From a virus (Duplodnaviria > Caudoviricetes), in the IMG/VR virus record IMGVR_UViG_3300042397_003635: a DNA stretch of 64,000 nt; one strand, written 5' to 3'. The notes beneath the pieces are model-generated. The model searched no databases, was not told the DNA's origin, and was given only the letters and a program-made list of their open reading frames with translations. Position 1 is the first letter of the stretch; each line of letters starts with the position of its first letter. Both the position numbers and the translations under genes were made by a program. Of the stretch, positions 15,649 through 62,890 are shown in pieces.

Positions 15649-16998
15649 TTAATACATTATTAAATTTTCTTTTGCAATTGCAACTGAGTTCATTTCTAAT
15701 ATTCCCCATTGACCATCTCCAATTGCAGTATAGAATATTACAAATGGCATACCTGTTTTTATTCCTTGCTGATCGGTTCCATATCCATATCTGTTTAGAT
15801 ATCTACTGTTTTCGGTTGAACACGTAACAGTATTGCCTTCATCAGATGGAGCAAATACTTTTCCTGATGGAACATTAAATGAAATCGAATAGGTTCTTTC
15901 TTTACCATATGAATTTTGAAGAGTATCAGCTTCACCCATTTCAATTGTTGCAGTAAGATTAGCAACTTCATCTGAACTCAATAATTCACCGCCTAAATAT
16001 TCTTTAGCCCATGCTTGTAGTGCGCCTATTTCAATTTTTTGGAAATCAGATTTTCCATTTTTATCTGGTCTAAATGGAGTAATTGCGCTAGATTCAATTT
16101 TATGGTTGCTAGCATCTCCAAAAAAGAATTCCAATAGATTATCAGTTAAGACTGAATAGGTTTTAGACGTTTCGCCGCTTGATCCAACTTGACCTGGAGT
16201 TTCTGTTCCTGGCGTAGTAGTTCCTGGAGTAACAACACCTGGAGTTTTTACATCGTATGGAGTAGCACTAGTTGTTATTTTAACATAACGACCGCCTCTA
16301 GGCAAGCCAACCTTAAATGAGGTTGTAATTTTACCTGAAATAAATGTAACCAAATCTGGAGTAAGTTTACCGGTTGCAGTTAAGGCCTTAACTATTTCTT
16401 CCTTCATTTTAATTGCGCGATTCTCTGCAAGAAATTCATTGCTTGGTTTAGCACCACCATAATTATGGTCTAGTTTAGTATAACCAGCTGGAATATCTAG
16501 AGTTGCATTTGCAATATCGGCTGCTCCTTCAATTGCAATTGATTTGAAATTGTTTTTTGCTTGTGTTGCATCTAACCTAAAATATTCAACTAGGTTTGTA
16601 ATAAAACCATCAAATAAAACTTTAGCGGTTTGAGCAACTGTCCAGTTTGGTGTAATAATATTATCTGGGTAAGGAAAATCTGTTCCTTTAAAATCAACCG
16701 ATGGGGTAACAGTCGGTGGTGCAACTTGTGGTTGAGTTGTTACAGCTGGTGTTGATTTAGGAGGGGTAACACTGGACCATTTAGATCCACGTTTAGCAGC
16801 TGAGCCGAATGATATACCAAGTGCTCCTTCTTTTCCGGATTTTTCAGCAATTCCAATTATACGTTGACCGCTTCCAGCCAAGCCTAATTTTGGGAATTTG
16901 CCACTTAGTTTTCCTCGCCAATCAATAAAAAGACTTGCATCTTGTTCAAAAATTCTATTTTCGCTTAACCAATTTTGGTATCTTAAAATATTTGCCAT
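15649..16998 (-). CDS. Putative internal head protein with divergent OmpA-like domain
   Basis: Starts MANILRYQNWLSE; SIAIEGAAD...SNEFLAENRA...RYVKIT; late promoter at 17022-17030. Confidence 0.5.
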   Translation of the reverse strand: MANILRYQNWLSENRIFEQDASLFIDWRGKLSGKFPKLGLAGSGQRIIGIAEKSGKEGALGISFGSAAKRGSKWSSVTPPKSTPAVTTQPQVAPPTVTPSVDFKGTDFPYPDNIITPNWTVAQTAKVLFDGFITNLVEYFRLDATQAKNNFKSIAIEGAADIANATLDIPAGYTKLDHNYGGAKPSNEFLAENRAIKMKEEIVKALTATGKLTPDLVTFISGKITTSFKVGLPRGGRYVKITTSATPYDVKTPGVVTPGTTTPGTETPGQVGSSGETSKTYSVLTDNLLEFFFGDASNHKIESSAITPFRPDKNGKSDFQKIEIGALQAWAKEYLGGELLSSDEVANLTATIEMGEADTLQNSYGKERTYSISFNVPSGKVFAPSDEGNTVTCSTENSRYLNRYGYGTDQQGIKTGMPFVIFYTAIGDGQWGILEMNSVAIAKENLIMY

Positions 16999-23846: not shown

Positions 23847-23872
23847 CCGCCTCTAAACTTCGAGGGGCGGCT
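23847..23872. terminator. Hairpin terminator, possibly bidirectional
   Basis: CCGCCTCT-AAACTTCG-AGGGGCGG flanked by T-rich runs. Confidence 0.55.
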
Positions 23873-24008
23873 CTTTACCTATAATATGGGTACTGGTATC
23901 TAGACTACTCTTATTTCTATAGATACTATCTCTACTTATATTAATAATAGAAAGAACAAGCCTAACCCTATACCAGCCAGTCTAGACTCTTCTCTATATT
24001 ATACCTAT

Positions 24009-24196
24009 CTCTATATAGACCAGACCCTACCAGACCGGGACTACGGAGTACTCTATATAGACCAGACCCCAGCCAGCCAGTATACCTATAACCGGGACTA
24101 CGGAGTGCCGCCTGCCAGCCGACCCAAAGGAGTCCACTTGGTCCAGCTTAAGGACTACGGAGTGGTGCGTCTCTTCGTCGGGGCCCGCTACGGAAA
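24009..24196 (+). repeat. Direct-repeat cluster (ACCGGGACTACGGAGT x2, CTCTATATAGACCAGACCC x2, ACTACGGAGT x3)
   Basis: ACTACGGAGT at 24040, 24097, 24154 (57-bp period), variant at 24187. Confidence 0.8.
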
Positions 24197-24293
24197 TCCT
24201 CGGGGTCGGGCGACCGCAGGAGAATCGGACATTAGGTAGAAGCTTGTAGACACCGGGCGCCAGGCTGTCTACTAGTCTGGTATAAATAACCTT

Positions 24294-24929
24294 ATGAAGA
24301 AGCAAGACATACCCCAGCCAGACTCTATACCTACTGGCAGTCTGGTATCGCGAAAGATCGCAGCCCAGAGACTAGGTGTAACCTTAAGAACACTAGACCG
24401 CTATATAGAGCAGGGTAAGCTAAGTCCCTATAAGAACAGGGTTAATGGTAGACTCTATATAGACTCAGACCAGATACTCTATCTACTAGGGAGTAGGGTA
24501 CCCCAAGACCGGTTGGTTATAATATATTGTAGAACGGCCCCCATTCCGGACTCTGGAGCCTCGGGAATCTCCAGCGCGACTCGTCTCAAGGAGCAGGTAG
24601 ACAGGGTACAGGGCTATTGTACGGCTAGGGGAATCCGGGTCGATGAGGTAATCCAAGAGGTACGTCGCGCGAATAGACTAGATGATAATGCACCGGGCTT
24701 GAATAAGATTATGGATTTAGTTGTACGCAAGAAGGTCAGTACCCTGATAATAGAGACCCCAGACAGGCTTGCTCGTTTTCTTGCTTGGGATATACTCGAA
24801 CGTGTCCTTATCTATCATGGTGTAGATGTACATATAATCCAGCCCAAGGTCGGGCGGCAGGAATTCGTCGACGAAATAAAGGAAGAATTAGTAGATATAA
24901 TAGCTAGCGCCAAGGAGCTCGGCATATAA
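24294..24929 (+). CDS. IS607-family TnpA-like serine recombinase, apparently lacking the catalytic Ser
   Basis: MerR-like HTH (AAQRLGVTLRTLDRYIEQGKL); resolvase domain IIYCRTA (canonical YARVS), LKEQ, IIETPDRLARF, EELVDII. Confidence 0.8.
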   Translation: MKKQDIPQPDSIPTGSLVSRKIAAQRLGVTLRTLDRYIEQGKLSPYKNRVNGRLYIDSDQILYLLGSRVPQDRLVIIYCRTAPIPDSGASGISSATRLKEQVDRVQGYCTARGIRVDEVIQEVRRANRLDDNAPGLNKIMDLVVRKKVSTLIIETPDRLARFLAWDILERVLIYHGVDVHIIQPKVGRQEFVDEIKEELVDIIASAKELGI

Positions 24930-25285
24930 TTAAAAACTTTAATATAGAGCAGAGTAGTATAGACCATTAGTCCACCTCCCCTAGAGAGAGGTAGGTCGGA
25001 GTATACTCTCCTGGATCTCTATGCGGGGTCCAGCCCTGGTCGGAGTTCTTGTCCTTATACCTATAGCTAATATACCACTTTTCCATGACACTGGACAATT
25101 TTTTTAAATAAAGTTATTAACAATTTCCCGGGCCTCTATTAGGCGGACATTTCTCCAGGGGCCGGGGATCCCCACGGAGCGGGGTGCGTAAAAATACCTA
25201 TGCCCCGTCGGCATGGCCCAGGGGTTTGGGCCTATTTCTATTATACCTATTTCTAATAAATAATTGCAAATAACCCGGTCTAGAT

Positions 25286-38987: not shown

Positions 38988-39069
38988 ATAAATCTATTTG
39001 TAGTTAATTATTATAGAGTAAATATAAACAATTAATTTGACACCAAAAAATATTTTACCACTTATTTCT

Positions 39070-39255: not shown

Positions 39256-39561
39256 TTATAATTTGTTTATACCTGTTTCGCGCTTAACTCTATAAAAGAG
39301 CTCGGCAGCCCATTCGTATTCTTCCCTTGCTATAGCTTCGTCTAGCGCAGCTTGACATCCATTATACAGGGCATGTAATAAGTATTCTAGATACTCAGCA
39401 CTCCAGTCTTCTTCTCCTGCAGTACGGCCTAGATCTTCAGCTATCTTGCCTAGACAGGATCTGATCTTGGTCTGGTCTCGACCTACTCCTTCTAGGCCGG
39501 TTAAGATACGTTGTTTAATTATCTGGGATAGGTACTCTGGCATTGCATTATCTTTAAACAT
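39256..39561 (-). CDS. Hypothetical protein with UVR-like motif
   Basis: LDEAIAREEYEWAAELF. Confidence 0.55.
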   Translation of the reverse strand: MFKDNAMPEYLSQIIKQRILTGLEGVGRDQTKIRSCLGKIAEDLGRTAGEEDWSAEYLEYLLHALYNGCQAALDEAIAREEYEWAAELFYRVKRETGINKL

Positions 39562-39578
39562 TATAGTTATTATACTAG

Positions 39579-40017
39579 CCTGGTAGGATAGGTTTAAGCT
39601 GCGCAGAGACCTGCCAGGCTAGCTACCAGGACCGGTCTGGAGGCAGCCCAGGAGTACTGTCCTGGCCTGTCCAGGGGTATACTATATACTGCTCCAGGAC
39701 TAGCCTGGGGACTGCTCCTGGCTGCCCTGGGGCTGTACCTGGCAGCTGCCCCCAGGTGACTCCAGGGGTACTCCAGGGGACTGCCTGGCTGCTCCCAGGT
39801 GACCCTGGGGGACTACCCAGGGGCTACCCCGGGGGCTATCCCTGGTATAGTTTTTTGTAGCCAGGGGGAAGCAAGCATTTTTACTTTTTTCTCTTTCCTC
39901 CCCGGCCTGGAAGCTGCGCTGGAACCTTTTTGACCAGACGGGCTTTTATCCCGAGCTTTTCCCAAGGTCATTTCTACTGGTGGAGATTTTCCCCTGGCCT
40001 GGGGCAGGTTATCCAGG
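39579..40017. repeat. GC-rich non-coding island with 24 CCWGG sites and several G4-G5 runs
   Basis: Manual count of CCAGG/CCTGG from 39579 to 40013; no ORF of 60 aa or more in the track. Confidence 0.9.
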
Positions 40018-40059
40018 TCTTTTGCTAAATAAATATCTTTATAATAATAAAGAAATACT

Positions 40060-40485
40060 ATGAATAAGATTAAATCGTTTAAGGAATACCTAGTAGAGTC
40101 TGCTGATATAGCTCAGCTTGCTCAAGACCTAGGTGGTACAGTGGAACCTGTAGAGGGCCAGACAGACTGGTCAGCAGTTAGAGGTTATCTAGATGTTAAC
40201 CGTGAAAAACTTAAAGAAACCCTTATCAAGATAACTGGTGATAGGATAACTGCAATGGTAGTTATTAAGGTTGCAGATATCTATGCTGAAGACAAGCGTG
40301 ATGGGGTAACTCCAAATCCAGACTGGTTAGGAGAAGCTCCAATCGTAGATGAAAACACGCCAGATCTACAAGAAATGGTTAAGGTGGTTATTGCGGCTAT
40401 TCAGCGTAATCTAGCTAAATCAGATCCAGCTACCCTTGCTAAGTTGAGTACTGCAGGTAAAGGGATTAAAACAAGCCGTTATTAA
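40060..40485 (+). CDS. Putative internal head protein
   Basis: MNKIKSFKEYLVES; AATAAATA at 40028. Confidence 0.6.
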   Translation: MNKIKSFKEYLVESADIAQLAQDLGGTVEPVEGQTDWSAVRGYLDVNREKLKETLIKITGDRITAMVVIKVADIYAEDKRDGVTPNPDWLGEAPIVDENTPDLQEMVKVVIAAIQRNLAKSDPATLAKLSTAGKGIKTSRY

Positions 40486-55784: not shown

Positions 55785-55967
55785 AATCCTTGTAATACTG
55801 TAATACTAGAAATGGCCGAGACCAACTGGTCTAAGCTTTCTATAGTTAATAATACCAAAAAATCTGTAAAAGTGGCACCTGGGTATTCATATTCAATTAT
55901 ACCCTCCAGCTGCTCCAGGGCTACCCTGGTGACTGCCAGGGACTCATTTGGAACCCTAATTAGGTAA

Positions 55968-61595: not shown

Positions 61596-62396
61596 TTATT
61601 GTTGTAGACTTGGAACCCAATGTGTAGTTCTGCCGTCTGCAGTTTTTTCTCTAATTACTGTATTTCCATGAGGATCTTCTTTTTTTCCATATACCTCAAA
61701 TTCAAAAACAAAGTCTCCCGATTCTCCAGTAACTTGCTGATAATTTCTAATACTTGCTCCGCCCTGTGCGTATGATACCCTACTAATTAATTTAGAATAG
61801 TCCCATAGTAATTGAATCTCATTATCGGTAAGATCCTTAACCAATCTATGTGGGGAAATCTTAGAACGATATAGCATTTCACATTTAATATAGTTTCCAA
61901 TTCCTGCAAAAAGTCTCTGATCCATTAGTGCTTCTACAACAGTTTTATTTGGAACCCTCTCAAATGATCTAAGCGTATTATAAACAGATGCAGTTGTATC
62001 ATTTAGTGCATCGACTCCTAGGGTTTTTAATTTTGCGTCTAACTCAACCTTACTTGCAAATTTAAGAGTACCGAATCGGCGCTGATCAATAAAAAATAGT
62101 TCAAGACCATCATCAAATACAAGTTTAATATGCGCATGGGGTTTTTGATAGATTGACCAAAATCCGCTCATTCCCAATGTAATCCAGATAGACATGGCGC
62201 CTTCCAATTCTAACCAGATGAATTTGCCTTTAACTCCACCGCCAACTACCTCCAGGGGCAGCTCCAGGGCTCCCAGGCCAACTGGGGGAGTCTTTAAGAA
62301 TCGACCGCCAAGTATGTCTACCCTAGCTAGTTTTTTATTAATTGTGTAATTTAGCAAACCTTCATATACGCGTCTGCACTCTGGTCCTTCTGGCAT
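61596..62396 (-). CDS. Fpg/Nei DNA glycosylase (zincless finger)
   Basis: MPEGPE, KGKFIW, LGMSG, DQRRFG, AGIGNYIKCEML (H2TH); C-terminus lacks the four Cys. Confidence 0.9.
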   Translation of the reverse strand: MPEGPECRRVYEGLLNYTINKKLARVDILGGRFLKTPPVGLGALELPLEVVGGGVKGKFIWLELEGAMSIWITLGMSGFWSIYQKPHAHIKLVFDDGLELFFIDQRRFGTLKFASKVELDAKLKTLGVDALNDTTASVYNTLRSFERVPNKTVVEALMDQRLFAGIGNYIKCEMLYRSKISPHRLVKDLTDNEIQLLWDYSKLISRVSYAQGGASIRNYQQVTGESGDFVFEFEVYGKKEDPHGNTVIREKTADGRTTHWVPSLQQ

Positions 62397-62461: not shown

Positions 62462-62890
62462 ATGATTTACAATTTCAAAGATTTCGTTACTAAGGTTGAC
62501 GAAAACGTAAACTCTGAAGAGTTTTTAAACAAATTTGGTTTAACTGAAGAAGAAGATGCAACAGCAGCAGACGCTCCAGTTGAAGATGCACCAGAAGAAG
62601 ACGCTCCAGTTGCTGACGAAGCTGCTGATTTAGAAGCTTTCAAAAAGGAACACCTTGATGTAATGTTCAATGAACTTTCATCTGATGACTTTGATTCATT
62701 CTATTCTTCAGAATTCAAAGAGTGGAAAGAAATGGAAGATGGTGAAGACAAAGAAGCTAAAAAAGAAGAACTCCTTACTAAAATCAAGGATATGTTCCAA
62801 TTAGGTGAAGAAGACAAAGAAGAAGCTCCAGCAGAAGACGAAGCACCAGCTGAAGATGAGCCGGCAGCAGAAGAAGCGCCAGAAGCATAA
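62462..62890 (+). CDS. Highly acidic putative prohead core/internal protein
   Basis: MIYNFKDFVTKVDEN; EDAP repeats; AATAAATA at 62431. Confidence 0.55.
   Translation: MIYNFKDFVTKVDENVNSEEFLNKFGLTEEEDATAADAPVEDAPEEDAPVADEAADLEAFKKEHLDVMFNELSSDDFDSFYSSEFKEWKEMEDGEDKEAKKEELLTKIKDMFQLGEEDKEEAPAEDEAPAEDEPAAEEAPEA

Follow-up and report, generated by a model that had tools for sequence, protein, structure and literature searches.

A phased array of CC-N-GG dyads between divergent genes of a large T4-like freshwater phage as a putative protein-assembly site and possible replication origin

The window, that is, the whole stretch of 64 kb of DNA that was analysed, belongs to a large uncultured freshwater relative of phage T4 and encodes T4-type topoisomerase II subunits (gp39/gp52-type). 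Within it, a gap of 498 bp (39562-40059) separates the start of a minus-strand gene (ATG 39561), P0001, which heads a long series of small minus-strand genes, from that of a plus-strand gene (ATG 40060), and this gap is filled by an island of short repeated sites. The parts of the locus, in order of position, are as follows.

39256..39561, minus strand: 101-aa early gene P0001, an open reading frame for an acidic, helical protein whose C-terminus carries a UVR-like motif; found beside the island throughout
39562..39606, minus strand: P0001 promoter region, read from the sequence, with boxes conserved in the alignment
39605..39870, no strand assigned: lattice array of CC-N-GG sites, with 20 sites on 23 lattice positions and a period of 11.26 bp
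39846..39903, plus strand: AT-rich core, 36% GC, near-invariant, ending in a 20-nt pyrimidine run
39904..40025, plus strand: variable GC-block and T-run modules, delimited from the alignment and including the ATTTTCCCCTGGCCTGGGG box and a terminator-like hairpin
40026..40059, plus strand: promoter region of the right-hand gene, read from the sequence as TAAATAAATA and TATAAT
40060..40485, plus strand: 141-aa gene, an open reading frame and the first of a variable right-hand gene set, outside the conserved module

The promoters were named by eye, against the phage's own repeated early promoter; a sigma-70 consensus scan returned no promoter in 39300-40200, and no enrichment of the Bacteroidota motif TAnnTTTG is seen in the window. 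On the minus strand, the P0001 promoter comprises a TATAAT (39569-39574) that would put the transcription start on the ATG or directly beside it, a CCWGG in the spacer (39579-39583), a conserved box GATAGGTTTA (39587-39596) and a palindrome GCTGCGCAG (39598-39606), and it shares the core TATAATAA with a multi-copy early promoter repeated at 39001-39068. In the right-hand promoter, a T4-late-like TAAATAAATA (40026-40035) precedes a TATAAT (40040-40045); AATAAATATCTTTATAA is kept in the relatives of the window's clade and absent as such from the relative G004, and AAATAAATA is also found upstream of the gene at 62462. An earlier, sequence-only reading of this DNA placed the island at the point where early and late genes diverge, which is plausible, with the qualification that the right-hand gene carries both late-type AAATAAATA and early-type TATAATAAT boxes. 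P0001 has no match in Pfam or PHROGs, and both P0001 and the next gene, of 60 aa, encode acidic products for which no DNA-binding family was matched. As leads only, the C-terminus of P0001, AREEYEWAAELFYRVKRE, resembles the UVR (UvrB/UvrC-type) helical motif, and PF02151 is present in 28% of the members of an Atlas look-alike cluster of this protein.

An exact recount gives 24 CCWGG in 39579-40017, out of 101 across the window, which reproduces the number first reported, and a density of at least six per 300 bp is reached nowhere else in the window. The enrichment also stands, with an expectation of 1.2 (mononucleotide) to 3.6 (first-order Markov) for the island's own composition in place of the 1-2 previously estimated at the local GC content, which is 0.54-0.63 in the island versus 0.37 in the window. 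That the island is non-coding is borne out by its position between divergent genes and by the stop codons that interrupt all six frames of the array region. Other details had to be corrected: the units CTCCAGGGG and CCCAGGTGAC, described as recurring in both orientations, occur twice each and in a single orientation, the short palindromic core alone being found in both, and the G4-G5 runs, given as six, number ten. The island is genuine DNA and not an assembly artefact, because five lake runs of different studies, among them perhaps the very sample from which the window came, contain 96-97% of the words sampled, and 13 related contigs carry it; at least one third of the words were recovered from 21 lake metagenome runs of various studies. 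The length of the array is polymorphic and the region breaks assemblies: one lake DNA run contains a variant in which 125 bp of the array (39578-39704) are deleted between two copies of ACTAGCCTGG, and four short contigs (L049, L051, L057 and L059) end 125-209 bp upstream of the P0001 start, within the variable half of the array.

The relatives were reached by two routes, the topoisomerase gene, which led to G001 (a 142-kb record with 90% identity over the island) and G004 (a record of 252 kb, its completeness rated at 93%), and the P0001 family, with 32 homologue clusters at 63-97% identity and a G004 copy at 38%. The search for relatives with two right-flank proteins found none, and neither BLASTN of the island nor TBLASTN of both flanking proteins against deposited phages returned anything useful. 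In every relative with upstream DNA to examine, the island lies beside the P0001 homologue; there is one island per genome in G004 (252 kb), G001 (142 kb) and the window (64 kb), and it is kept even where the identity of the neighbouring protein falls to 33-38%. The ten contigs of the window's clade have 18-24 CCWGG each, the island of G004 has 11 CCWGG among 23-24 CC-N-GG, and L138, a G004-like contig, also carries it. Lack of conservation in relatives had been named beforehand as an observation that would count against a function of the island; the opposite was found, since it is strongly conserved. The genes on the right-hand side differ between relatives, with an unrelated 69-aa open reading frame in G004 and other genes at the metagenome loci, and the conserved module thus consists of the island, P0001 and the next 60-aa gene.

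Within the array, conservation is unevenly distributed. Measured as column identity between the window and nine non-redundant relatives, the CC and GG core columns reach 94% across the whole array and 91% in its fast-evolving left half, whereas the centre base reaches 76% and 70% and the spacer 74% and 66%, respectively. In the left half, up to about 39745, the spacers are free and length variants occur, and the right half (39746-39845) is nearly invariant. Site centres switch between A and T, with an occasional C or G, and the flanks of the sites are poorly informative apart from a weak C at -3 and G at +3/+4. Of the 27 CC-N-GG sites in the window's clade, 24 are CCWGG; in G004, approximately half of the sites are CCSGG. 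The strand of the G-runs also flips between clades, with 10 G-runs and 4 C-runs on the plus strand of the window and 2 and 8, respectively, on that of G004. The conserved core, a centre as free as the spacer and the flipping of the G-run side indicate that the functional word, as judged from the alignment, is the dyad CC-N-GG, and neither CCWGG nor a G-quadruplex motif; the G-quadruplex suggested earlier loses its ground where the G-runs are not kept on one strand.

These substitutions bear directly on the earlier proposal that the CCWGG sites are Dcm/EcoRII-type methylation targets, acting as a switch of the kind known from the P1 pac site or as a decoy that titrates a host CCWGG methylase or restriction enzyme. 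The predominance of CCWGG in the window's own clade and the C5 methylase encoded by an unrelated phage family with CCWGGT arrays would agree with such a role, which is nevertheless highly improbable, because the centre base is as unconstrained as the spacer and CCSGG is so frequent in G004, and because no phage methylase was found in the relatives searched. The search for a phage CCWGG methyltransferase, recommended by the sequence-only reading, was negative both for C5 methylases (PF00145), absent from five related records including G004, and for N4/N6 methylases (PF01555), absent from G001 and G004, the controls being positive in each case. Outside the island, observed and expected CCWGG numbers are 77 versus 64-86 in the window, 166 versus 114-161 in G001 and 312 versus 286-464 in G004; CCWGG is thus not depleted elsewhere, there is no counter-selection in any of the three genomes, and nothing selects against this word. 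A decoy is further opposed by the behaviour of EcoRII-type enzymes, which need several sites, so that a cluster would activate them and not titrate them. A dense cluster of CCWGG, therefore, need not involve Dcm-type methylation.

The sites are also regularly placed. Lattices fitted to the site positions in the window, G004 and L138 gave the following values, against which a null of random positions has R 0.54 at the 99th percentile.

Window: 20 of 23 positions filled, period 11.26 bp, rms 1.0 bp, R 0.85
G004: 15 of 18 positions filled, period 11.40 bp, rms 0.8 bp, R 0.90
L138: 13 of 14 positions filled, period 11.22 bp, rms 0.6 bp, R 0.95

All 13 relatives measured have a period of 11.2-11.4 bp, and the power at 10.5 bp is below 1. 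Individual spacings in the window range from 9 to 14 bp, and the phase error never exceeds 2.2 bp; when the same spacings are shuffled in order, R falls to 0.67 ± 0.09 (p = 0.007), and successive spacing deviations are anticorrelated (lag-1 autocorrelation -0.51), as expected for jitter about fixed points and unlike a drifting tandem repeat. In G004, the test of spacing order gives the same trend without significance, and L138 is too regular for the test. Since phase errors do not accumulate, shuffling lowers R and the deviations are anticorrelated, selection acts on the absolute register of the sites across about 250 bp, and such a register points to a partner that would be periodic and continuous, either a protein filament or a core on which the DNA is wrapped. 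The period of 11.26 bp is that of a double helix underwound by approximately 7%, and in supercoiled DNA the lattice sites would thus all lie on the same side of the helix. From lac looping in living E. coli, the effective helical repeat has been put at about 11 bp per turn, a value attributed to supercoiling (PMC3001091). Elsewhere in the window, three CCWGG at 10-11 bp lie in island-like units (GCTGCTCCAGGGCTACCCTGGTGACTGCCAGGGACT) at 55905-55945, in what is probably an intergenic gap; a counterpart with three sites was not detected in G001, and on the minus strand this mini-array ends 13 nt before a TATAAT.

The same measurements make it least likely of all that the island is a functionless expanded tandem repeat or the remnant of a coding repeat rich in Pro and Gly. 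Triplets of CCWGG do occur in Pro/Gly-rich coding stretches, as at 62252-62277, and perfect 11-bp CCWGG tandem arrays exist in unrelated contigs; in the island, however, the core columns are kept while the spacers drift, the phase is held over 23 periods, the period is not a multiple of three and stops occur in all frames, and conservation persists where the neighbouring protein is only 33-38% identical. The three CCWGG at 62252-62277, conserved in G001 at 24951, and four CCTGG with an exact 15-bp period at 16193-16242, within the open reading frame 15649-16998, look like by-products of coding repeats and not lattice sites.

A function as RNA was also weighed, either of a plus-strand non-coding RNA of about 440 nt ending at the hairpin and T-run (40019-40023) or of a long structured leader of the early operon, and is improbable, the RNA evidence for the island being ambiguous. 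A terminator-like hairpin (39996-40019), followed by TTTT, is indeed present in the module that also contains ATTTTCCCCTGGCCTGGGG, a conserved box (39985-40004), the z-scores of folding are -3.5 and -4.2, a long-range helix pairs 39900-39910 with 39993-40004 and is kept only via G-U on the plus strand, and in the metatranscriptome X22, which has 32% of the island words, contigs cover 39514-40004 at early-gene-like depth. Nevertheless, carried-over DNA may account for this cover, and on the right it declines at the point where the genes of the relatives diverge; in the RNA libraries X23 and X24, none or almost none of the island is covered, the X24 contig ending at 39549 with an island depth of 0-1.4. 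The low folding energy is explained by the palindromic nature of the sites; the consensus folds of ten relatives, on both strands, gave covariation terms of -0.87 and -0.16 kcal with 2 and 1 compensated pairs; and no Rfam family was recognized, the best match (21.7 bits versus a gathering score of 54.8) coming from a permissive threshold at which matches are at chance level. A dyad lattice of 11.26 nt, moreover, has no rationale in RNA.

Adjoining the lattice, the AT-rich core (39846-39903) has 36% GC between flanks of 55-66% GC and is the most conserved part of the island, being almost fully conserved in 10 relatives. It ends with a pure pyrimidine run of 20 nt (39884-39903; purine on the minus strand), which is retained in G004 and L138 with different letters, and it is a candidate unwinding or priming element. 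Taken together, the conservation, the phasing and the single copy are best explained by a putative unique, strongly selected, cis-acting track for protein assembly, present once per genome. Its most likely job, placed first though tentatively, is that of a replication origin of the iteron type, because a repeat array and a conserved AT-rich pyrimidine/purine core between divergent promoters form the pattern of an origin: the repeats are evenly spaced (20 sites on the 11.26-bp lattice, rms 1.0 bp), and the adjoining segment 39846-39903 is AT-rich by composition. In such an origin, a dimeric protein would polymerise along, or wrap, the approximately 20 CC-N-GG dyads over 250 bp, the resulting filament or wrap may strain and open the AT-rich core, and a primer or R-loop could form in the opened core, where a T4-type replisome would load; the same complex may also shut the P0001 early promoter, because the lattice extends into the spacer of that promoter.

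The origin, which the sequence-only reading had listed as one option, thus remains the leading candidate. No initiator or other DNA-binding protein that would read the repeats was identified among the neighbours, DnaA-box-like matches in the island are at the background rate only, and neither the GC skew of the window nor that of G004 reaches an origin-like extremum there. Another repeat-rich island, located at 23.86-24.28 kb and made of other motifs, is an equally unproven origin candidate. Among known systems, lambda ori and plasmid iterons have evenly spaced repeats of 17-22 bp beside an AT-rich segment, and the island resembles them in both respects; it differs in that its sites are of 5 bp and far more numerous, and in that no initiator gene adjoins it. 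The active origins of T4 are placed at points of transcriptional divergence (PMC3016281), a position that oriE, oriF and oriG have in common with the island, and an early promoter adjoins both oriE and the island (PMC3016281). The 12-nt repeats of oriE are without shown function (PMC3016281). In the T4 record NC_000866 (79355), oriE is annotated within gene 5, with repEA and repEB on the opposite strand, and iterons of 12 nt inside coding sequence are therefore a weak model for intergenic arrays. A CC-N-GG lattice of this kind was not found described in the literature searched, and the array would be a novel form within the known class of iteron or centromere-like arrays.

In large T4-like phages of environmental Bacteroidota, there is essentially no map of origins or of other cis sites acting at the genome level, and the mechanism of T4's own repeat-bearing origin is not understood. 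The element described here is sharply defined by its sequence, as a 5-bp dyad on a rigid lattice other than 10.5 bp, in single copy and in a clade common in lakes, and is a ready bait for its reader protein; it also offers a direct way of asking whether sites can be set to the helical repeat that DNA has when supercoiled, as opposed to relaxed. In a further, rather unlikely possibility, torsion gates the track: the dyads would come into register only when the DNA is underwound by approximately 7%, and the reader, whether encoded by the phage, delivered with the virion or supplied by the host, would polymerise only where the DNA between the promoters is supercoiled, firing the origin or flipping the early/late programme.

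The unique copy and the phased sites suit an operator or a pac site equally as well as an origin. As an operator, the lattice would be the track on which a repressor polymerises, shutting the P0001 promoter, and perhaps the opposite one, at the early-to-late switch, or pairing the island with another site and thereby looping out the early cassette; this is doubtful, and of the alternatives to the origin it is the one that deserves most weight. The CCWGG in the spacer of the P0001 promoter (39579-39583) is on the lattice and is present within 1 nt in six of nine relatives, and the early cassette is bracketed by two repeat islands. The second of these, non-coding and with GGGACTACGGAGT and CTATATAGACCAGACCC units, occupies 23860-24290 at the far end of the cassette and adjoins a gene (24294-24929) whose product has MerR-type HTH and resolvase domains according to Pfam and is kin to the TnpA of the IS607 family. 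Dimers of IS607-family TnpA assemble cooperatively on short motifs spaced 10-11 bp apart, coat at least 70 bp, and form filaments on such helically phased motifs that capture a second DNA (PMC6188088). In that system, however, there are four motifs at a transposon end, in contrast to about 20 intergenic sites in the island, the link from the phage protein to CC-N-GG is without evidence, the motifs of the second island differ, and the TnpA-like gene has no TBLASTN match in G004, a record that is missing about 7% of its genome.

Another parallel is parC of plasmid R1, which serves as both operator and centromere; its promoter is flanked by 11-bp repeats in two groups of five, and each repeat takes up one ParR dimer (PMC2241845). 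As in the island, rows of 11-bp repeats abut a promoter, and binding to parC is cooperative, the array being both operator and assembly site (PMC2241845); the two differ in that parC has 10 direct repeats in two sets and the island about 20 dyad sites in one run. ParR/parC and TubR/tubC further have adjoining genes for an adaptor and a cytomotive filament, and none such was found among the neighbours of the island, nor were parR or parM-like genes found in the relatives. A tubulin-type motor is lacking, the family being absent from five records in a search whose control was valid; no information came from the search for ParM, as the ParM and EcoRII-C profiles matched nowhere, control genomes included. 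We know of no need for partition in a lytic T4-like phage. The omega-protein arrays of inc18 plasmids and ribbon-helix-helix operators also consist of contiguous short sub-sites along which a small dimer polymerises; omega heptads, however, have a 7-bp period, direct or inverted, in 7-10 copies with a known reader gene, as opposed to the 11.26-bp period of the island. An operator function is further weakened by the approximately 18 other early promoters that have no such array, by the excess that twenty sites would represent for one small gene, and by the invariant AT-rich core, which it leaves unexplained.

As a pac site, which the sequence-only reading had proposed along with a terminus, the island would be bound by, or wrapped around, a ring of the small terminase, and the large terminase would cut nearby to start headful packaging, which is unlikely and carries less weight than the operator. 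The small terminases of SPP1 and Sf6 are oligomeric rings and the basis for the idea of ring wrapping, to which phased short repeats are suited, and a single site per genome agrees with it, as do, as leads only, the CCWGGT arrays of the unrelated phage family mentioned above, 1.2-2 kb upstream of the large terminase and after an HTH protein. P1 pac, which has seven GATC-containing hexamers flanking the cut site next to the pacase genes, is like the island in being a unique cis site made of a cluster of short palindromic methylase-type sites; the island differs from it in the lack of a methylase, the free centre of its sites and the distance of 50-56 kb to the terminase. This distance is an objection, given that a pac site is looked for in or beside the terminase genes: in G004, TerL lies at 65184-67130 and a weak gp16-like gene at 67127-67864, with the island at 9.7-10.2 kb, and in G001, TerL lies at 52.7 kb and the island at 2.4 kb. 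(The terminase was found with the Terminase_6N profile; Terminase_6C found nothing.) Furthermore, the contigs of the relatives share no common start or end in the island beyond the effects of the variable repeats, and T4-type phages have circularly permuted genomes with no fixed ends and package without a unique pac (PMC3016281).

Arrays that resemble the island are present in other phages. A pattern scan of viral contigs, which selects for such spacing, brought up an unrelated family of small AT-rich phages (L119, L134, L102, L118, L127, L140, L143, L157 and L105) in which several short arrays of CCWGGT at 11-12 bp are accompanied by CATTCA(A/G)TTT boxes, a resemblance that may be convergent. 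In L119, the arrays (L119:10745-11500) occupy a convergent intergenic gap that follows the gene for an HTH protein of 138 aa, and the large terminase lies 1.2-2 kb downstream of them; the look-alikes of the HTH protein include small terminases, as a lead only, and CCWGG is also dense within an 83-aa gene that adjoins the arrays. The same contig encodes a C5 methylase (L119:1154-2170) and a primase-helicase, and this family is the one place where the idea of methylation and packaging might apply. By TBLASTN, only a PD-(D/E)XK nuclease is shared between the window phage and this family. Under the torsion-gated reading, the comparable spacing of CCWGG in this family would hint at a reader of a widespread, undescribed class. 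Among the matches listed for five phased CCWGG in bacterial genomes, most were GC-rich genomes and simple 11-bp tandem repeats, and they gave no host lead. Perfect 11-bp tandem arrays of 8-22 units with one CCWGG each, for which the search pattern selects and which imply no link to the island, are found at L129:5915-6150, L142:9886-10100, L095:4142-4260, L083:10008-10100 and L110:6898-6990; most such arrays lie outside long open reading frames, and that of L158 lies inside one of 391 aa.
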